Shown in pieces: positions 1-36,914 of a DNA stretch of 36,914 nt. Made by a program: the position numbers and the translations under genes. Every line of letters starts with the position of its first letter. Position 1 is the first letter of the stretch. The stretch lies in the IMG/VR virus record IMGVR_UViG_3300025018_000069, positions 1 through 36,914 of that record; one strand, 5' to 3'. The notes below the pieces were generated by a model that ran no database searches, was not told the DNA's origin, and was given only the letters and a program-made list of their open reading frames with translations. The stretch comes from a virus. Lineage: Duplodnaviria > Caudoviricetes.

Positions 1-127
1 CAATGCCAGTCGAAATGAGGGAAACCCACACAGGCCACAACGTCATACTCTACACAATGACACCAGCTAGAGGCATCAGAATGACCAACTTCGACAAACA
101 CGTCAAAGACATAAAACTAGCCCTAGA
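1..127. repeat. Terminal direct repeat (copy 1); assembly overlap indicating a circular/complete genome
   Basis: 1-127 (caatgccagt...ccctaga) is identical to 36788-36914; 127 nt is a typical assembler k-mer length, and the repeat falls inside a CDS. Confidence 0.97.
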
Positions 128-1016
128 AGCCAAGAGTGTGAGAATCCAAGCTCCAATACCAGGAACAGGACTGGTGGGAATAGAAGTAAACCGAGACAAC
201 CAGGGAGTCCTACCATGGACAGATGACCTTCTAGACAAAGGAGAAATGACCATCCCAGCAGGAGTCGACGTATACGGAAAACCACACAAAATCGACCTCA
301 TAGAAGCCCCACACATACTCATCGGAGGAACAACTGGCTCAGGAAAAAGTGTGTTCATGAACACAGTAATCAAAGCCCTCACAAACCAAATGGACCCAGA
401 GGACATGAGAATGATACTAATCGACCCAAAGCGGACAGAGTTCATCGAACACGAAAACCTACCACACCTAGAGGTTCCAGTCATAACAGAAATAAGTAAA
501 GCCTCACTAGCACTAGAGTGGTGTGTAGAAGAAATGGAAAACAGATACCAAAAACTCAAGCAGGCCAGAGTTAAAAACATCAAAAACTACCGTAAAAGCT
601 ACAGAGATATGCCATACATGACAGTAATCGTCGACGAACTCGCAGACATCATGCTCTCAGGAGAACAAAGAGTGATAACTGAAACGACCATCAAAAACAA
701 CAAACCATCAGTAACTACAACGAAACTCAATGAAAGCGACATAGTTAAGGACTCGATTATAAAACTAGCACAGAAGGCCAGAGCAGTTGGAATCCACCTA
801 ATAGTGGCCACACAGCGACCAAGCGTGGACATAATCCCAGGAATCATGAAGGCCAACTTCCCAACACAAGTAGCATTCATGGTCAACAAAAAAGTAGATA
901 GCCAAGTGATACTCGACCAAAATGGAGCCGAGGAACTAATAGGAAAAGGCGACATGCTCTTCGCTAGCCCAGGAACACAAGGATTACAGCGACTACAAGC
1001 CTACTACACGGAGTAA
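3..1016 (+). CDS. C-terminal FtsK/SpoIIIE motor part of the nuclease-FtsK fusion that starts at 35851
   Basis: VRIQAPIPG, PHILIGGTTGSGKS (Walker A), LIDPK, EMENRY, VIVDELAD (Walker B), ARAVGIHLIVATQRPS, GAEELIGKGDML; ends before any gamma domain. ATG at 3 equals the internal Met at 36790. Confidence 0.95.
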   Translation: MPVEMRETHTGHNVILYTMTPARGIRMTNFDKHVKDIKLALEAKSVRIQAPIPGTGLVGIEVNRDNQGVLPWTDDLLDKGEMTIPAGVDVYGKPHKIDLIEAPHILIGGTTGSGKSVFMNTVIKALTNQMDPEDMRMILIDPKRTEFIEHENLPHLEVPVITEISKASLALEWCVEEMENRYQKLKQARVKNIKNYRKSYRDMPYMTVIVDELADIMLSGEQRVITETTIKNNKPSVTTTKLNESDIVKDSIIKLAQKARAVGIHLIVATQRPSVDIIPGIMKANFPTQVAFMVNKKVDSQVILDQNGAEELIGKGDMLFASPGTQGLQRLQAYYTE

Positions 1017-1099: not shown

Positions 1100-1356
1100 T
1101 GCAAATAGATAGAATACTGATGAAAGAACAAGCAGATAGAACCTTCAATAGTATATCTAAAATACACCTCTCTATTCAAGATGAAAGGCTAAGAAACTTG
1201 ATGAAAAAAGATGATGTTTGTGGTCAATGTGGTGGACAACTATCAAGGGATGAACATCCCGACGGTATAGCTGTTGGAAAATGGGAATGCACTGAATGTG
1301 ATTGGTTTCAAGACGATATTATCAACACCAGAATACAGGAAGAATTACTATGGTAA
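1099..1356 (+). CDS. Small zinc-ribbon protein
   Basis: CGQC...CTEC pairs; GGAAGG upstream; more T-rich than the genome norm. Confidence 0.65.
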   Translation: MQIDRILMKEQADRTFNSISKIHLSIQDERLRNLMKKDDVCGQCGGQLSRDEHPDGIAVGKWECTECDWFQDDIINTRIQEELLW

Positions 1357-1775
1357 CTAAAAAACAAATAATGAATTGGGCAAGCATTGGGTTCGGCTCA
1401 GATAAAAATGAGCCTAAAATGTTTGAAGAAAAATTAGACGAACTACTCCACCAATTAGAAACAGAGGTGCGAGATAGAACTCAGGACGAGATTTTCAGAA
1501 CTCTCAAGCAGGACAAAGAGATTAATTCTGTATTACCCCATCCAATTGATGCTATTGAGTTTGTTATGGAACAAAGAGAACTCAATCAAAACGATATGAT
1601 TCCCTATTTTGGGAGCAAATCAAGGGTTTCTGAGGTATTGAATAAAGTCAGACCATTATCAAAATCTATGATTCGTAGACTTATGGCAGGTTTAGAAATA
1701 TTGGCAGAGGTTTTAATTCAAGAGTACGAACTATCCCAACCAAAGGAGGACAACCATGAAAACATGGACGATTAA
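1350..1775 (+). CDS. HigA-like antitoxin / Xre HTH protein (orphan)
   Basis: PIDAIEFVMEQRELNQNDMIPYFGSKSRVSEVLNKVRPLSKSMIRRL...LIQEY closely resembles the HigA C-terminal HTH; likely start is ATG 1350, overlapping the upstream stop. Confidence 0.8.
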   Translation: MVTKKQIMNWASIGFGSDKNEPKMFEEKLDELLHQLETEVRDRTQDEIFRTLKQDKEINSVLPHPIDAIEFVMEQRELNQNDMIPYFGSKSRVSEVLNKVRPLSKSMIRRLMAGLEILAEVLIQEYELSQPKEDNHENMDD

Positions 1776-3924: not shown

Positions 3925-4126
3925 AGTCTACGAGATGAACCAGCCAGAGCATCGTCTAGAGTTAAGAAAAGATTTGCATGAAGTTGGATTTTTCGACTTC
4001 AAAGAAAATGAGATATACTGGAAACTACTAGAAAAATCTAAGGTAGACCCACCAGAAGCAGAAGACTTTGCAAAAGCGGTACAGATATACAACCACGTGT
4101 TTCTAAGAAAAGGAGTAATCAACTAA
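3896..4126 (+). CDS. Hypothetical protein
   Basis: GAGG RBS; TAATG-coupled to rusA. Confidence 0.65.
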   Translation: MQFYVEMLAKVYEMNQPEHRLELRKDLHEVGFFDFKENEIYWKLLEKSKVDPPEAEDFAKAVQIYNHVFLRKGVIN

Positions 4127-4626
4127 TGTTCATAAAAGTAGCACCAGTATCTAAACCAAGAATGACTCAACAGGACAAGTGGAAACAGCGTCCAGTTGTC
4201 ATGAAGTACCGAGCATACAAAGACCAAATTAGAGAGAGTGTTAGTAAATCATTTGAAGAATCTCAAGTAGTCCACTGGCTTGTTTTTGTCGTTGAAATGC
4301 CAAAAAGCTGGTCTAATAAAAAAAGGGCTCAAATGGACGGCCAACCACATCAACAGAGACCAGACATTGATAACTTCATAAAAGGCTATTTTGACGCCAT
4401 TGCGGAGGAAGACAGCCATATATATGAGGTCCACGCACTCAAGGTTTGGGGAACAAAACCAGGTATTTACTTAGGAGTAGACGACTATGCCAGCATATCC
4501 AAAACCATCAAAAAAGAAGAAAAGCGACAGAGTCCAGAGCAAAAACAGGAAAAACTGCTTGCAAGACTTGGAAGACAGGGAAATCCACGGTTGCGAGGTG
4601 TGTCTCCTAGAATACGAAGAAGGTAA
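4126..4626 (+). CDS. rusA: RusA-family Holliday junction resolvase
   Basis: PVSKPRMTQQDKWKQRP N-terminus and RPDIDNFIKGYFDA...EDSHI catalytic motif. Confidence 0.9.
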   Translation: MFIKVAPVSKPRMTQQDKWKQRPVVMKYRAYKDQIRESVSKSFEESQVVHWLVFVVEMPKSWSNKKRAQMDGQPHQQRPDIDNFIKGYFDAIAEEDSHIYEVHALKVWGTKPGIYLGVDDYASISKTIKKEEKRQSPEQKQEKLLARLGRQGNPRLRGVSPRIRRR

Positions 4627-5130: not shown

Positions 5131-6426
5131 ATGCAAATCGAAACCAGGAAACTAACAGAATTAGTACCATACCCACGCAACCCTCGTGAAATATCAAAAG
5201 AAGCCTACCAAGACCTTAAGAGTAAAATTAAACGCTGGGGACAAATCGGAGCATTATTGATTGACGGCAGAGACAACGTAACCATTCTAGGTGGAAACCA
5301 CGCTTTCGAAGCAATGAAAGACCTTGGTCACACAGAAGCTAAAGTCGAATACAGAACACCAAAAAACGACGCAGAAGCCCTGGAACTAGTAATTCTACAC
5401 AATGAGAAGTTTGCCAGCTGGATATCACAAGACCTAGCGGAACTAGTCCACGAATATAGAGGCCAGATAGACCTAGAAGCCTACACAATCGATTTAGGCA
5501 AGGGTACAAGGATAGACAAAGTTCTAGCCCGTTATGGGGAAACTGAGGAGGACGAATTCGACCAAACACTCCCAGAAGACCCAGAAAGTAAGTTCGGAGA
5601 AGTCTACCAACTAGGACGACATCGCCTAATGTGCGGAGACTCAACCAACCCACACCACATTGCACAACTCATGGGAGAAGAAAAAGCTAACCTCATTGTA
5701 ACCGACCCACCATACGGCATCAGCTACACAGGCAACCCAACAGGAAAAGAATGGGCAATGATTGCCAATGACGACAAAACAGGTAGCGAACTCATGGACT
5801 TCCTCTATGCTGCATTCTCAGCAATCTCACAACACACTATCGAGAACTGCCCAGCCTACGTCTACCACGCAGCCAGTACACAACCAGAGTTCATGCAAGC
5901 ACTAAAAGAAGCAGGATTTTTCTTCAAACAGCAAATCATTTGGCACAAATCAATGGTCCTAGGAATGAGCCACTACCACTGGGAACACGAGCCAGTAATA
6001 TACTGCAGTCTAGGAAACGGAACAGTCCCATTCTACGGAGACAGAACCGACAAAACAGTCATCAGTGTACTAGACTACAAAGACCTCGACAAACTGACTA
6101 AAGAGGGAGCAGTCAACCTACTAAAAGCACTAAAATCAAGAACCACCATCTTCTATCAAACCCAACGAGGACAAGAATACGAACACCCTACCCAGAAACC
6201 AGTAGGAGCAATCGCCCCATTCATTAAAAACAGCAGTAGGCCAGATGAAATAGTGGTCGACCTATTCACAGGCTCAGGAACAACCCTAATGGCCGCACAG
6301 CAACTGGATAGACAAGCACGATGCATGGAGTTCAGCCCAGCATACTGCGACGTCATACGCAAAAGATACGCAAAAATGGTGGGAGAAGAACACCAATGGA
6401 TGGAGTTGACAAAAGCGGTTAAGTAA
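5131..6426 (+). CDS. ParB-like N-domain + N6/N4 DNA methyltransferase (beta class)
   Basis: LVPYPRNPR/GGNH ParB-like N-terminus; HRLMCGDST, VTDPPYG, HPTQKPV, DLFTGSGTT. Confidence 0.93.
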   Translation: MQIETRKLTELVPYPRNPREISKEAYQDLKSKIKRWGQIGALLIDGRDNVTILGGNHAFEAMKDLGHTEAKVEYRTPKNDAEALELVILHNEKFASWISQDLAELVHEYRGQIDLEAYTIDLGKGTRIDKVLARYGETEEDEFDQTLPEDPESKFGEVYQLGRHRLMCGDSTNPHHIAQLMGEEKANLIVTDPPYGISYTGNPTGKEWAMIANDDKTGSELMDFLYAAFSAISQHTIENCPAYVYHAASTQPEFMQALKEAGFFFKQQIIWHKSMVLGMSHYHWEHEPVIYCSLGNGTVPFYGDRTDKTVISVLDYKDLDKLTKEGAVNLLKALKSRTTIFYQTQRGQEYEHPTQKPVGAIAPFIKNSSRPDEIVVDLFTGSGTTLMAAQQLDRQARCMEFSPAYCDVIRKRYAKMVGEEHQWMELTKAVK

Positions 6427-6442
6427 CTATATAATTAAATAA
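6406..6442 (+). promoter_or_regulatory. sigma70-type promoter overlapped by the 16-bp motif
   Basis: TTGACA(6406)-18 bp-TATAAT(6430); CTATATAATTAAATAA at 6427-6442. Confidence 0.8.
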
Positions 6443-6627: not shown

Positions 6628-8232
6628 ATGGGACCAATGACGCCAAAACAAATCATTTTCGGAGAAGAAGCTCGTGAAAAACTACTTGCAGGAGTTGACA
6701 AGATAGGTAGAGCAGTAACAACAACACTCTCCCCAAAAGGTAGAAATGTCGCACTGGGACAAATGTTTAACCAAACACCAAAAGTAATCCACGACGGAGT
6801 ATCAGTAGCTAAAGAAATCGTCCTACCAGACCCATTCGAAAACATGGGTGCATTACTGGCCAAAGAAGCTGCAGAAAAAACAAACGATGCAGTCGGAGAC
6901 GGAACTACCACAGCAATCCTACTAACACAGCAAATAACTTCTAAGGGAATGAAGCAGATTAACAACGGCATCAACCCAATGTTCATGAAGAACGGAATTG
7001 ATAAAGCTGTCAAAGCAGTAACCACTGAAATCAACAGACTAGCAAAACCACTTCAGAGAGCAGACTGGGAGAAGGTAGCAACCATATCAGCCCAAAACCC
7101 AATGATTGGTAAGAAAATCGTAGAAGCACTCGAACTCGTCGGAAACAACGGAGTAATCGAGGTCAAAGAGGGTAAATCTACAGACATCACTATCGAACAC
7201 AAGGAAGGCATGACCTACGGCGGAGGATACATCTCTCCATTCTTCTGTAAATCACCACAGGACCTAGAGGTGGAAATCAGCGACACCAACATCCTAATCA
7301 CCGATAACAGAATCAGTAAGTTCGAAGACTTCATGCCACTACTAGAAAAGCTATCACCAGTAAGCAAAAAGCTGGTAATCATCGCCGAAGAAGTAAGAGA
7401 CGAAGCCCTCCAGGGAATGGTAATGAACAAACTCAGAGGACTCCTAGACGTTGCCATCGTCAGGGCTCCGTTCTACGGCCAAAGACGCAGAGACATGCTC
7501 GAAGACATCGCAGTCCTAACAGGTGGAAAAGTAGTAACCGAAACAAAAGGACTCTCACTAAGCGACCCAGAAATCATGACCTACCTAGGAAAAGCTGAAA
7601 CAGTCAGAGCAGACAAACACAGCACCTCAATCATCGGAGGCAAGGGAGACGAGAAGGACATCGCAGCTCACGTGGCCAAAGTAACCAAAGAAAAGAAACA
7701 AGCTAAACTCGCTCACGAAAAAGAAGCAACCACACTGAGACTAGCAAAACTCACAGGTGGAGTAGCAGTCATCATGGTGGGAGCAGACTCAGAGTCAGAA
7801 ATGAAGAATCTCAAGGAAAGAGTGATTGACGCCAAAGGTGCAACTCAAGCAGCTATCAGCTCAGGAATCGTCCCAGGAGGAGCTATCACACTCATTAAAG
7901 CAGTAAAGGTCCTACACAAAGTTAAAGCCGAAAATGCCGACGAACAAGCAGGAATTGACCTCATCAGAGACATAGCAACCGAACCATTACTGCTCCTAGC
8001 CAAAAACTCAGGAGTACAACACCCAGAACACATGCTCTACCAAATACAGGAAAAAGACGACGCCAACTACGGATATAACGTAATGACAGGCGAGTATGGA
8101 GATATGATTGAAATGGGAATCATCGAACCAGCACTCCTTGCAGTAAGCTCACTCAAATACGCAGCAAGTGCAGCAAGTATGATTCTAACAACCGACTGCC
8201 TAGTAAACGATATGCCAGAGGAGAAGAAATGA
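6628..8232 (+). CDS. groEL: Chaperonin GroEL (Cpn60)
   Basis: TTLSPKGRNV, HDGVSVAKEI, VGDGTTTA, APFYGQRRRDMLEDIAVLTGG, RLAKLTGGVAVI, GIVPGG; lacks the GGM tail. Confidence 0.97.
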   Translation: MGPMTPKQIIFGEEAREKLLAGVDKIGRAVTTTLSPKGRNVALGQMFNQTPKVIHDGVSVAKEIVLPDPFENMGALLAKEAAEKTNDAVGDGTTTAILLTQQITSKGMKQINNGINPMFMKNGIDKAVKAVTTEINRLAKPLQRADWEKVATISAQNPMIGKKIVEALELVGNNGVIEVKEGKSTDITIEHKEGMTYGGGYISPFFCKSPQDLEVEISDTNILITDNRISKFEDFMPLLEKLSPVSKKLVIIAEEVRDEALQGMVMNKLRGLLDVAIVRAPFYGQRRRDMLEDIAVLTGGKVVTETKGLSLSDPEIMTYLGKAETVRADKHSTSIIGGKGDEKDIAAHVAKVTKEKKQAKLAHEKEATTLRLAKLTGGVAVIMVGADSESEMKNLKERVIDAKGATQAAISSGIVPGGAITLIKAVKVLHKVKAENADEQAGIDLIRDIATEPLLLLAKNSGVQHPEHMLYQIQEKDDANYGYNVMTGEYGDMIEMGIIEPALLAVSSLKYAASAASMILTTDCLVNDMPEEKK

Positions 8233-8822
8233 CCAAACAATTAAACTCACACCAATTCGAAGAAGTGTATAAAGACCTAAAAATCGACCTAGACGAACTA
8301 GGATGCATCATGGCCAACATACAACCACTAGTAAGTATGGAAGAACCAGACGAAGTAACAGAAGCAGGAATAACACGCCATCTTTACAAATCACCAAACC
8401 CAAAGCGTAAATGGATAAACGGATGGGTTGTGGGAAAAACCGCTCACGTAACACTGTTGTACGGACTTTTAGAGAACGGCCACACATGGAAAAAACAAGT
8501 AGACACAGTGCTTAAAGACTGGGAAATGAAGACAGTGGAAATCGACCACATAGATTACTTTGATAGTCAGTATGATGACGAACCATACTACTGCGTCGTA
8601 GCCCACATCAAAGTAACCGACAAACTCCAGGAAGCAAACGACAGACTCCAGTTTCTCCCACACATTAACACATTCGCAGGGTATAAACCCCACATGACAA
8701 TTTGCTATATCAAGAAGGATAAGAAGACTCTAGACAGTTTTCTCAAGTGGATGAACAGAGCCTGGAAGGGTAAGAGACTAAAAGTAGAGGACAAGCTCAA
8801 CTATGGATATGCACCTAAATAG
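8229..8822 (+). CDS. acb1: Acb1-like (T4 gp57B-type) 2H phosphoesterase, anti-CBASS nuclease
   Basis: Two HxT motifs in Acb1-like context: AHVTLLYGL and YKPHMTICY; N-terminal GCIM; ATGA-coupled to groEL. Confidence 0.8.
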   Translation: MTKQLNSHQFEEVYKDLKIDLDELGCIMANIQPLVSMEEPDEVTEAGITRHLYKSPNPKRKWINGWVVGKTAHVTLLYGLLENGHTWKKQVDTVLKDWEMKTVEIDHIDYFDSQYDDEPYYCVVAHIKVTDKLQEANDRLQFLPHINTFAGYKPHMTICYIKKDKKTLDSFLKWMNRAWKGKRLKVEDKLNYGYAPK

Positions 8823-9541: not shown

Positions 9542-9832
9542 ATGCCAAACACATATAAAATCGAACAAATCAAAGTAGCACCAGGATTTGTCATTGTTAA
9601 GCCACAAGAGATTCAAGAAACAGTTGCAGGTATCTACCAACCAAACAAAGAAAAAGAAGTCCCTCAGTGGGGTGAAGTGATAACAATCGGCGGAGCAGTC
9701 AAAAAAGACCAACTCAAACTCAAATCAGGCGACGTCGTGATATATAAGAAGTGGCAAACAAACGACGTTAAAGTCGGAGACAAGAAGTACTACTTCCTAA
9801 ACTATGACGAAATCATCGGAGTAGTTGAATGA
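9542..9832 (+). CDS. groES: Co-chaperonin GroES (Cpn10)
   Basis: PGFVIVKP, mobile loop TVAGIYQP, GEVITIG, GDVVIYKKW..NDVKV, EIIGVVE; 96 aa. Confidence 0.9.
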   Translation: MPNTYKIEQIKVAPGFVIVKPQEIQETVAGIYQPNKEKEVPQWGEVITIGGAVKKDQLKLKSGDVVIYKKWQTNDVKVGDKKYYFLNYDEIIGVVE

Positions 9833-33181: not shown

Positions 33182-33520
33182 ATGCAGCAAAAGTACATAA
33201 AAGTTTGCGGAGGTTGCAAGAAGCAGCTGAGAACAGCAAATCAAAGGCAAAGGCGACACATTAAGTGTAAAAAGCCTAAAAGAGTAAGAGTAAATTATTA
33301 CTCTAAACAAGCACTGTCTGTTAGAGGTAGAGACAAACACCAGTGTAGAAAATGTAAAACATATCTTGGTGGTAACGTGATTAGATATGAAGGTCAAGTA
33401 CACCATATCGACGGAAATACAGGAAACAACGACGAAAAAAACCTAATTCTACTATGCACACCATGTCATAGAGAAATACATAAAAAAGGAATTGAGTCGA
33501 TTAAAGAAATATTAAAGTAG
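33182..33520 (+). CDS. HNH endonuclease
   Basis: RDKHQCRKC...VHHIDGNTGNN...NLILLCTPCH. Confidence 0.9.
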   Translation: MQQKYIKVCGGCKKQLRTANQRQRRHIKCKKPKRVRVNYYSKQALSVRGRDKHQCRKCKTYLGGNVIRYEGQVHHIDGNTGNNDEKNLILLCTPCHREIHKKGIESIKEILK

Positions 33521-34594: not shown

Positions 34595-34626
34595 CTAGAC
34601 AAACTCGATGTTATGTAATTAAATAA
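34595..34626 (+). promoter_or_regulatory. CTAGACA + 16-bp motif TTATGTAATTAAATAA at the start of the early operon
   Basis: Same arrangement as 2526-2559. Confidence 0.65.
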
Positions 34627-34648
34627 GAATACAAGGCAAGTAAACAAT

Positions 34649-34795
34649 ATGAAATGCGACAAAAACCATAACATGACTCTAGAGGAAATACTAATATACA
34701 AAACCACCTCACCTCTAGAGGACGACCAATACAAAACAATGTGGTGGTGCGAAACCTGCCAGGAGGCAAAAAACCTGGAAGAAGGAGACTTATGA
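34649..34795 (+). CDS. 48-aa zinc-binding peptide; not in the ORF track
   Basis: MKCDKNH...WWCETC; ATGA-coupled to the next gene. Confidence 0.65.
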   Translation: MKCDKNHNMTLEEILIYKTTSPLEDDQYKTMWWCETCQEAKNLEEGDL

Positions 34796-34989
34796 AAAAA
34801 GTCAATATCGACACAGGAGCAGTCAAAAAATCGCTCCAAACAGTAGCAAACATGGCTGCAGGAGCAATCCTCCTCACCATACTAGGTGCGACAGTCTGGG
34901 CAACCATCAACTTCGACGTACTGGCCAAAGCAGTCAGATACCCAGAAGCCGTCAGACAAATGGAAGTAGAAGTCCTAATCAAAAAATAG
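34792..34989 (+). CDS. 65-aa single-TM protein
   Basis: AAGGAG RBS before ATG 34792; AAGAILLTILGATVWATI. Confidence 0.7.
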   Translation: MKKVNIDTGAVKKSLQTVANMAAGAILLTILGATVWATINFDVLAKAVRYPEAVRQMEVEVLIKK

Positions 34990-34992
34990 CGA

Positions 34993-35034
34993 TTGACAAG
35001 GCACAGTATACTAAGCTATTATATAATTAAATAA
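34993..35034 (+). promoter_or_regulatory. sigma70-type promoter overlapped by the 16-bp motif
   Basis: TTGACA-18 bp-TATTAT; TTATATAATTAAATAA at 35019-35034. Confidence 0.8.
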
Positions 35035-35046
35035 GAAAAGGAGACT

Positions 35047-35847
35047 ATGGAAAACAAAGCATTATCAGTAGACAACTACCTAAACCCAGAGAGATGGGCT
35101 CAAATGGAGAAGCTGGCCACAAGCCTAGTCCAAAGTAGAGCATTCCCAAAGGCAATACAGAACGCATCTCAAGCACTAGTAGTGATGCAATGCGGAGTCG
35201 AAATGGGACTCAAGCCAATGGAAGCAATCAACGGCCTAAGCATCATAAACGGAGTAGTCAGCCCATGGGGAAAGACCACAGTCAAACTTCTAAGAAACCA
35301 CGGCTGGAAAATAAAGTATGAAGCTACAACCGAGCGAGGTGGCGGAATGACAGCAACAGTCACAAAAGACGACGAAAGCTACACCGACACACTCTACTTT
35401 GACAACGCAGTCAAATCAAAATGGACCCACAGCTACAAGGACGGCAAACAAATCCTAAAAGTAGGCTGGTACGAGGGAGCAAACAGGGAAATGAAGCTCA
35501 GATACGGCGTACTGAGTAAAATAATCAAAACATACATCCCAGAAGTCCTAGGAAGCCTCGGAGACATCGCAGAAGTGGCAGAAGACTACATCATAGTAGA
35601 AGAACCAACCGACACCAATGTCGGGACCAAAAACAACGTAGTAGTCGAACAGACCAAAGAACAGCAGAAATCTACACTAGCCGATTTCCTCGAAAAAAAC
35701 AAAAACAATCCAAAAAAGGTTGAAAAACCTTCAAAAACAGTAGAAAAAGAAGCAAAACCTGCTGAAAAAGAGCCAGAAACAGTCAAAAACGAGGAAAAAA
35801 CGCCCGACAAGGCAAACGCCCAAGAAGCAGAAATAGTAAAGGAATAA
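35047..35847 (+). CDS. RecT/Redbeta-like single-strand annealing protein
   Basis: LA..L..S...PK......AL.....G.EMGLKPMEAINGLSIING..SPWG...ML pattern of RecT-like SSAPs; disordered K/E tail; adjacent to a nuclease. Confidence 0.7.
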   Translation: MENKALSVDNYLNPERWAQMEKLATSLVQSRAFPKAIQNASQALVVMQCGVEMGLKPMEAINGLSIINGVVSPWGKTTVKLLRNHGWKIKYEATTERGGGMTATVTKDDESYTDTLYFDNAVKSKWTHSYKDGKQILKVGWYEGANREMKLRYGVLSKIIKTYIPEVLGSLGDIAEVAEDYIIVEEPTDTNVGTKNNVVVEQTKEQQKSTLADFLEKNKNNPKKVEKPSKTVEKEAKPAEKEPETVKNEEKTPDKANAQEAEIVKE

Positions 35848-35850
35848 CAC

Positions 35851-36914
35851 ATGCGAGAAATATCACTGCCTATCGAACACATCAGCTACAGCTCAATGAG
35901 GAAGTTCTGTAACAACCCCCAGATGTTCTTCAAAAACTACATTTTAGGAATCTGGGACTTCAAACAAAGCATGGTAATGCTAGTAGGAAGTGCATTCCAC
36001 AAAACAATGGAACACTACTACAAAACAGGAGACCTAGATACGGCCATAACCATCGGTTCAGCATACATAAGCACCATTAAAGAAGACGAAATCCAATGGG
36101 GAAAAACAGGCACTAGAGAGGCTGCACAAAAGAGATTAGCCTCAGCAGTGAACTTCTACATGAACGAACAGCCAGAAGTCGGAAAAGTAATCGGAGTCGA
36201 AGAAGTAGTCACCACAGACAGAGGATTCGGCGGACAACCACTCCCAGTACCAGTCAAAGCGGTAACTGACCTAGTAACCGAAAGAGACGGCAAACTACAC
36301 CTCTGGGACTATAAAGTAGTGAGTAGCTTTACAGACCAAGAAACAGAAGACCCACTCAAAATAATCCAGGCAATGTTCAACTTCATAACCCAGACAGCAA
36401 AACATGGTAAAGAACCAGTAGACTTCACATATCTAGAGATAAAAGCGAGCAAAAACAAAGACGGAAGCCCACAAGTACAACCATATAAAATAATCTACTC
36501 AGAGCAGGAACAGTACAAAACATTCTTCCTAAAGCTCTACACCGACGTCATAGTCGAACTATCAAGAGAAGACCGCAGATGGCTGCCAAACTTCGGAGAC
36601 ATGTTAACAGGAGCTGAAAGCTGGGAAGACTACATCAGCGATACCCTAGACTTCAAAAAACTACCCGATGTAAGTCACAGAGCTAACCTAAAACAGGTCC
36701 AAGTCAAAGGATATGAGGCATCGGACATCGAAACCGACGAAACCCTCACAAAAGAGCAAAAAATCAAAGCAAAGCTCCAAGAGTTCGCAATGCCAGTCGA
36801 AATGAGGGAAACCCACACAGGCCACAACGTCATACTCTACACAATGACACCAGCTAGAGGCATCAGAATGACCAACTTCGACAAACACGTCAAAGACATA
36901 AAACTAGCCCTAGA
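35851..36914 (+). CDS. PD-(D/E)xK (RecB/PDDEXK_1-like) nuclease fused to an FtsK motor; 650 aa, continues across the junction to 1016
   Basis: Hand translation has no stop: MREISLPIEHISYSS...GSAFHKTME...GVEE...AVTDLV...LWDYK...Q, then KIKAKLQEFAMPVEMRETHTGHNVILYTMTPARG (FtsK alpha domain); AAGGA RBS. Confidence 0.9.
   Translation, partial: MREISLPIEHISYSSMRKFCNNPQMFFKNYILGIWDFKQSMVMLVGSAFHKTMEHYYKTGDLDTAITIGSAYISTIKEDEIQWGKTGTREAAQKRLASAVNFYMNEQPEVGKVIGVEEVVTTDRGFGGQPLPVPVKAVTDLVTERDGKLHLWDYKVVSSFTDQETEDPLKIIQAMFNFITQTAKHGKEPVDFTYLEIKASKNKDGSPQVQPYKIIYSEQEQYKTFFLKLYTDVIVELSREDRRWLPNFGDMLTGAESWEDYISDTLDFKKLPDVSHRANLKQVQVKGYEASDIETDETLTKEQKIKAKLQEFAMPVEMRETHTGHNVILYTMTPARGIRMTNFDKHVKDIKLAL
36788..36914. 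repeat. Terminal direct repeat (copy 2)
   Basis: Identical to 1-127. Confidence 0.97.

Follow-up and report, generated by a model that had tools for sequence, protein, structure and literature searches.

In the helicase-nucleases AdnAB, AddAB and RecBCD, the motors are SF1 helicases with a C-terminal nuclease. HerA-NurA is a second motor-driven design for end resection, and the matched passages of one study describe its N-terminal barrel as the putative exit and its 5' resection as dependent on translocation (PMC9960219). The annealing pairs in the matched passages of a review use a motorless exonuclease, and in lambda the C-terminus of the annealase binds the exonuclease (PMC11611040). Here we describe a gene that encodes a PD-(D/E)xK nuclease and an FtsK motor in one chain, next to a predicted annealase gene, in IMG/VR virus record IMGVR_UViG_3300025018_000069. 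The window that we analyzed is the whole 36,914-nucleotide stretch, a complete tailed-phage record (36.9 kb) that contains terminase, portal and major head genes and that IMG/VR classes under direct terminal repeats. We put at roughly 55% the probability that this fusion performs ATP-driven end resection that feeds the neighboring predicted annealase, replacing the motorless exonuclease of Red/RecET-type pairs.

A nuclease and an FtsK motor in a single chain

An earlier reading of this DNA from its letters alone (hereafter the sequence-only reading) had proposed that an open reading frame (ORF) at 35851 runs without a stop from nuclease motifs into an FtsK alpha domain before the contig ends. 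We found exactly this arrangement: the frame is open for 354 codons up to the contig end, and the Pfam matches within it are PDDEXK_1 (residues 10-216, E 3.6e-14) and FtsK_alpha (residues 291-354, E 2.7e-7). As both domains precede the contig end in one frame, the fusion is independent of the circular join. The record is circular, with its first 127 bases repeating 36788-36914, and after rotation the ORF continues into 3-1016 to give a single protein of the predicted 650 aa. FtsK_SpoIIIE was matched within this remaining part (E 7.5e-48) and FtsK_gamma was not, as had been anticipated for the rotated contig. Two cluster members on 36.9-kb contigs (P0331 and P0328, possibly from one and the same sample) carry the whole protein, identical to the joined ORF at 650/650 and 649/650 positions, and a Logan contig, from a run that is possibly the record's own source, shows 0 differences over 34600-36914 and extends 1345 nt beyond the window end. 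With whole copies in two assemblies and this identical contig, we found no stop or frameshift between the domains, and the single-chain nuclease-FtsK fusion is confirmed as an observation.

To describe the two halves, we used a structure model of P0004, a 92% homologue (mean pLDDT 87.9, pTM 0.57), and counted residues on an alignment of 129 homologues of less than 90% identity drawn from 153 rows. Residues 2-265 of the model matched AdnA (Z 16.5, rmsd 3.9, 237 aligned), the putative exonuclease 3l0a (Z 16.4), RecE (Z 14.9), ACE1 (Z 13.7), Cas4 (Z 12.9) and AddB (Z 12.2); a PDB sequence search with the nuclease profile returned 0 matches. D140, D153, K155 and Q173 were kept in 129/129 homologues and E117, G46 and H50 in 128/129, and no set of cysteines that could bind an Fe-S cluster is conserved in the fusion homologues. 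By its modeled fold the N-terminal domain is a RecE/AdnA-like PD-(D/E)xK nuclease, in agreement with the sequence-only reading, and its nearest folds include the end-resection nucleases AdnA, RecE and AddB.

Residues 298-650 of the model superimposed on E. coli FtsK with Z 41.1 (rmsd 1.8, 329 aligned), compared with Z 19.7 for HerA. The Walker A lysine K428, the Walker B glutamate E525, the arginine finger R573 and K596 of the DNA loop were invariant in the 129 homologues, and the other residue of that loop, R585, was kept in 126. These counts (126/129 and 129/129) show that DNA-gripping loop II is retained at the positions of P. aeruginosa R632/K643, which we mapped, together with the loop-I positions K657/R661, by offset from QRPSV (numbering from the matched passages of PMC7321959). 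As the catalytic residues of both halves are kept, both appear to be under selection as enzymes.

The fusion was also predicted to have neither a transmembrane nor a gamma domain, and this held. We detected no membrane segment in the fusion (top 19-residue hydropathy 1.16) and no Pfam match to the gamma domain, and the chain ends 58-93 residues past the QRP arginine in the 129 homologues, compared with 104-211 residues in 80 cellular FtsKs that came from a metagenome scan with the full alignment, keyed on motor motifs, and that served as controls. The score of the fusion against NCBIfam FtsK was 219.7 bits, for a cut-off of 1566.

Two insertions were observed in the motor. A 22-residue insertion past Walker B (residues 535-556, window ~666-731) is modeled as a beta-hairpin and is missing in the 628-aa close homologue P0005. 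A 984-aa family member, P0167, carries an insertion of ~290 residues within Walker A, with ends that look intein-like.

The fusion in the exonuclease slot beside annealases

The same architecture recurs beside annealases, as the sequence-only reading had suggested searching for. We obtained 55 full-length homologues of 622-737 aa from a search for longer relatives, with identities to the 354-aa query as low as 25%, and 54 of them contain all three Pfam domains; there are >100 distinct full-length homologues. In the first locus search, 52 of 80 viral loci held the full fusion, and an annealase gene adjoined all 52, lying <=860 nt upstream. A second search with a nuclease-only bait gave 95 loci, partly on the same contigs, of which 86 were fused, 8 were cut by the contig end and 1 had a broken gene; no split form was found among them, with a bait that was built from fused members and is therefore biased towards fusions. 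Homologues of the fusion are thus not always split. An annealase was present in 91 of these 95 loci, downstream in 11, and three of the four misses lay at contig edges.

The annealases fall into three clusters: Bet-like, RecT and window-type, the last with 7/8 examples that pass Pfam RecT. These divergent families alternate beside the fusion: at least 5 family changes were counted on the tree of the 56 distinct fusions, where the minimum is 2. A profile-profile comparison of the three was not significant even between two that both pass Pfam RecT, so this test was uninformative. In 21 loci of the window annealase family, the next gene was the fusion in 6 and a motorless protein in 15 (YqaJ in 4, a PDDEXK-linked family in 7, an unassigned family in 4). 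FtsK was found in 0/11 of the control phages that carry a motorless nuclease, 7 of them >=90% complete, and YqaJ in 0/34 fusion phages. As window-family annealases otherwise adjoin motorless nucleases in phages without FtsK, we conclude that the fusion fills the exonuclease slot beside the annealase.

The annealase of the window itself matched PHROG 4171 (E 2.2e-9) and had no Pfam match. Its model has a core at residues ~10-180 followed by a largely disordered tail, and its best fold match was lambda Red-beta (Z 7.0, rmsd 3.7, 133 aligned), followed by RecT (Z 5.4); Foldseek returned Sak, Red-beta and RecT at E 0.04-0.07 only, and a relative at locus L008 scored above the Pfam RecT cut-off. 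Together this is moderate evidence that the gene is RecT-like. The sequence-only reading had placed the fusion 3 nt behind such a gene and under one promoter. The gap is indeed 3 nt (TAA CAC ATG), and the promoter probably drives both genes, judging from its position: a scan found 4 sites, against 4.0 in shuffled sequences, so the number of sites equals chance. A 19-nt AT-rich direct repeat occurs at 34611-34629 and 35019-35037, and one copy overlaps this promoter; its 12-nt core recurs with 1 mismatch at 6432 and exactly in L298-L300. The repeat is possibly an operator or a phage promoter element.

Within the otherwise variable annealase tail, the motif L-x-[DE]-F-[LI] lies in a predicted helix (residues 204-219), where F214 is invariant and L211 is kept in >=90% of the 33 closest homologues. 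The motif was present in 6/6 loci with the fusion and 0/15 without it, a correlation that is confounded by kinship, as the six fusion loci are closest kin. An MGNL-like tail motif (M/L-G-N/K/A-L/F) is common to five annealases of RecT type and one of Bet type, and the fusions that they accompany group in one clade (support 100). This is a stronger case than the window motif, yet it is a single cross-family instance.

To place the fusion among its relatives, we built FastTree phylogenies, all midpoint-rooted and without topology tests. In the motor tree, from which a motif filter left out 9 rows, 63 of the 64 fused motors group together in a single clade (support 98), separate from the 40 cellular and 17 unfused viral FtsKs included; no nuclease or annealase lies beside the unfused viral FtsKs near this clade. 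The nuclease tree set 66 fused and 10 short nucleases apart from 66 stand-alone nucleases (support 92). The simplest reading of these midpoint-rooted trees would be a single origin of the fusion with some losses of the motor. Locus scans with two single motorless nucleases gave no loci.

Family members in public databases carry generic names. In INPHARED no phage covers 80% of the fusion, the alignments lying over the motor among the matches listed (40 of 411), and the full architecture was found in none of its cultured phages. In Siphoviridae sp. ctHip2, an FtsK and a PD-(D/E)xK nuclease occur as separate proteins (BFVD A0A8S5RUZ7 and A0A8S5RVC0); this pair is possibly a split analogue of the fusion. 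A0A8S5RDL0, named PD-(D/E)XK protein, aligns over 394 columns at 31% identity and possibly belongs to the family.

Proposed motor-driven resection and its alternatives

FtsK moves DNA from its beta to its alpha domain, according to the matched passages of PMC7321959. The N-terminal nuclease would therefore receive DNA at the exit face, as in HerA-NurA, and the chain order and the published direction are consistent with placing it on the N-terminal side, where DNA would leave a presumed ring. In the mechanism that we propose, the motor would form a hexameric ring like FtsK, as the invariant, trans-acting arginine finger suggests. With the gamma domain absent, this ring would load at a DNA end or without sequence preference, and would pump double-stranded DNA from the beta to the alpha face into nuclease domains on short tethers. 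Of the two strands the nuclease would trim only one, probably the 5' strand by analogy with RecE and lambda Exo, and the annealase, held via its short tail motif, would coat and anneal the remaining 3' tail. The likely use would be phage genome repair, circularization or concatemer formation, and the motor would make resection faster and more processive and help it to get past bound proteins. The sequence-only reading had likewise called the locus a motor-driven resection and annealing machine; that interpretation is partly supported, in that the architecture, the single chain, the conservation and the annealase link are all upheld, and HerA-NurA-like resection would be the best reading, with support from the exit-side geometry.

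Several observations weigh against motor-driven resection. Motorless relatives are common: among the matches listed (150 of 323), the 148 representatives that we classed comprised 85 nuclease-only, 56 fused and 7 partial proteins. Some motorless relatives adjoin ERF, RecT or window-type annealases (L258, L259, L294), which makes the motor an addition to a known module and not a requirement of the nuclease fold. The ten short sequences fall inside the fused nuclease clade, and L346:7859-8758 (G147) is a 299-aa motorless copy surrounded by host genes, the 16 kb read there containing neither annealase nor FtsK; the motor can therefore be lost. The loop-I arginine (the P. aeruginosa R661 position) is R or K in only 59/129 fused proteins, compared with 80/80 cellular FtsKs, and 16/101 fused proteins have no basic residue in loop I at all. 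In the window protein this position is Q, and K609 and K610 are kept in the same loop. The HerA counterpart of this arginine, R552, is required for resection in the matched passages of PMC9960219, and we identified no strand-separating pin in the fusion. The domain arrangement in the P0004 model is uncertain, as its pTM indicates, and both the leaning of the nuclease bait and the kinship behind the window tail motif belong on this side of the balance.

Many of these points would suit an ATP-independent nuclease that resects as RecE and lambda Exo do, joined to a motor with a separate job in the same pathway, such as end-finding by sliding, stripping of bound proteins or branch migration after annealing. 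The motorless relatives beside annealases, a motor apparently lost more than once, the eroded loop-I arginine, the flexible linker and the closeness of the RecE fold favor this alternative, and all of the linkage evidence fits it equally well. We nonetheless consider it unlikely, as the nuclease would lie where DNA leaves the pump, only a short stretch separates the nuclease end from the alpha domain in the 129 homologues, with lengths in two narrow classes (61-73 and 84-89 residues), and the nuclease-only bait recovered no split form.

A further alternative, which includes the host-chromosome degrader raised in the sequence-only reading, is that the fusion destroys host or competitor DNA, with the motor feeding the nuclease as is proposed for HerA/FtsK capture and defense systems. 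The matched passages of PMC12839542 propose that such motors deliver foreign DNA to nucleases in defense systems, PADLOC gave matches to SspH, HerA and an Argonaute-linked Cas4-like nuclease, and the fusion is, from its position, probably an early gene. The PADLOC matches to HerA/FtsK anti-phage systems are at the level of single domains only, however, and the four neighboring genes gave no match. The annealase link survives family swaps and reversal of the gene order, the fusion is found in integrated temperate prophages, and no sensor or self-protection gene is conserved downstream of it. As the fusion gene is always accompanied by an annealase gene and takes up the exonuclease slot, destruction of the host chromosome is a weak reading, and we judge this alternative as a whole improbable.

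We hold it equally improbable that the motor serves replication or genome handling, with the nuclease processing intermediates in recombination-dependent replication, fork restart, or the untangling and segregation of concatemers. Neither DnaB nor SSB was found in the 34 fusion phages, and genes that we take to be initiator-like follow the fusion in some loci. Stand-alone phage FtsKs are hypothesized to disentangle concatemers in the matched passages of PMC13299392. The control phages are, however, also mostly without DnaB (present in 1/11) or SSB (2/11), and they lack FtsK, so phages of this kind need no FtsK for replication. Packaging is done by a separate terminase and portal, the prophages have their own integrase, and the XerD-activating gamma domain is missing. 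Finally, the idea that the fusion arose by misassembly or by chance at the circular join, to which the splitting of the gene by the record's ends might point, is refuted by the in-frame nuclease and alpha domain ahead of the contig end, the Logan contig, the identical whole proteins in other assemblies and the >100 distinct full-length homologues, and we give it next to no weight.

Hosts, other features and comparison with described systems

Among 20 GTDB loci with the family, 8 are titled Saccharibacteria or Saccharimonadales and 7 are from other taxa, on contigs of <=41 kb. Several loci lie in integrated prophages; these have the integrase at the far end, and genes that we presume from their sequences to be host genes directly precede the annealase. 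The junction of host and phage is immediately 5' of the annealase in L349-L351 (G002), L355-L356 (G407) and L347-L348 (G001). The verified hosts of relatives are Saccharibacteria, and the host of the window phage probably belongs to the Patescibacteria. Among the data sets listed as containing the window sequence, the best is an aquifer metagenome, which may be its source, and none is of RNA, which carries no information on expression. We dropped the idea that the module integrates the phage, as in the prophages that we looked at a tyrosine integrase is encoded at the opposite end; no tyrosine integrase was found in the window phage. Only 2/401 genomes sampled from the phylum that contains Saccharibacteria matched the family strongly, one of them with a motorless protein, and a host test with a provirus-flank gene gave matches in 3/301 genomes, at 24-31% identity. 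About 25 of the 401 genomes match the nuclease weakly within frames of 950-1120 aa (L318-L345); these are probably cellular helicase-nuclease fusions.

The features of the fusion locus and other genes of the window are listed in Table 1. A RusA gene at the predicted place is real, and its proposed role in completing the pathway does not generalize: RusA was matched in 5/34 fusion phages (4 above cut-off) and 1/11 controls. The GroEL of the window (534 aa) lies just below the NCBIfam equivalog cut-off and occurs with GroES within a 37-kb genome; the relatives L299 and L300 have a GroEL-like gene too.

Table 1. Features of the window, with coordinates in the whole stretch.
Feature	Coordinates	Strand	Basis or remark
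Direct terminal repeat, circular assembly overlap	1..127	.	Splits the fusion gene in the record
Remaining part of the fusion gene: FtsK alpha + beta motor, no gamma	3..1016	+	Pfam, fold, conservation; stop at 1014-1016
Small transcriptional regulator	1302..1775		
RusA resolvase, not a conserved part of the module	4126..4626	+	Pfam E 1.1e-14
ParB-like domain fused to N6/N4 DNA methyltransferase	5131..6426		
Phage GroEL	6628..8232		
Protein matching PHROG 755 (RNA ligase)	8229..8822		
Phage GroES	9542..9832		
HNH endonuclease	33182..33520		
Inverted repeat, 28 bp, 82% complementary, 5-nt loop	34437..34497		In a mostly non-coding stretch upstream of early genes
Sigma70-like promoter TTGACA-18-TATTAT	34993..35022	+	11/12 score; predicted function
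Predicted single-strand annealing protein, divergent RecT/Red-beta fold, 266 aa	35047..35847	+	PHROG 4171, model, fold matches
Conserved tail motif L-x-[DE]-F-[LI], annealase residues ~197-219	35635..35703	+	Candidate partner-binding site
PD-(D/E)xK nuclease domain, fusion residues 1-267	35851..36651	+	Pfam, fold matches, conservation (G46, H50, E117, D140, D153, K155, Q173)
Short flexible linker, residues 280-297	36688..36741	+	Sole pLDDT < 50 segment in the P0004 model
Start of FtsK alpha domain	36742..36914	+	Pfam, repeat; 36788-36914 within the terminal repeat

The sequence-only reading knew of no characterized system with this architecture, and our literature search, with supplements and the FtsK-HerA and annealase-classification surveys outside its scope, found no description of it. 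The fusion goes without mention in the matched passages of PMC7321959, PMC9960219, PMC11611040, PMC8093625, PMC8987985, PMC5512222, PMC7824862, PMC4569894, PMC12839542 and PMC13299392; the terms FtsK, motor and fused have 0 occurrences in PMC11611040, the terms FtsK and translocase have 0 in the Firmicutes survey PMC8093625, and neither lists a partner of this kind.

Tentatively, and at slightly less than even odds, we suggest that the fusion represents a third motor-driven design for end resection after the helicase-nucleases and HerA-NurA: a single-chain, self-assembling FtsK ring with six nucleases on its exit face, which would hand single-stranded DNA to interchangeable annealases via short co-evolving tail motifs. 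If so, this would be the first system of the Red/RecET type to be driven by ATP, with a wide spread among phages of Patescibacteria. It would show that a chromosome-segregation motor was repurposed for end processing and arrived by convergence, with other components, at the HerA-NurA layout. Such a system could also serve as a compact two-gene recombineering tool, with fast, processive resection for long inserts, and would offer a native recombination system that stems from phages of Saccharibacteria, bacteria with few genetic tools.

Comparison with described systems places the fusion beside several of them. Like the exonuclease-annealase pairs (lambda Exo and Red-beta, RecE and RecT, YqaJ/DUF3799 and RecT), it has a PD-(D/E)xK gene with an intact site beside a predicted annealase of RecT/Red-beta fold, and the conserved motif in the annealase tail may parallel the nuclease-binding tail of lambda; unlike them, its nuclease is not motorless and bears a 350-aa FtsK ATPase. 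With HerA-NurA it would share the layout of an FtsK/HerA-superfamily ring pump with the nuclease on the N-terminal, exit side. It differs in being a single chain that is phage-borne, in a motor of the FtsK clade with an alpha domain and not HerA with its HAS barrel (Z 41 vs 19.7), in a PD-(D/E)xK nuclease instead of NurA, which has an RNase H-like fold, and in an annealase partner instead of RecA/RadA. AdnAB, AddAB and RecBCD also combine a motor with a RecB-family nuclease in one chain, and AdnA is the best nuclease fold, whereas the motor of the fusion is FtsK (a predicted double-stranded DNA ring pump), the nuclease is N-terminal and conserved Fe-S cysteines are absent. Compared with cellular FtsK/SpoIIIE and the phage FtsK of PHROG 1358, the alpha and beta domains, Walker A and B, arginine finger and loop II are all kept; the membrane anchor, long linker and gamma domain are missing, the motor forms a separate clade and the loop-I arginine is variable. 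The fusion is predicted to act in the manner of a Red/RecET pair, its construction may resemble that of HerA-NurA, and it departs in a defining feature from each of Red/RecET, HerA-NurA, cellular FtsK and AddAB.

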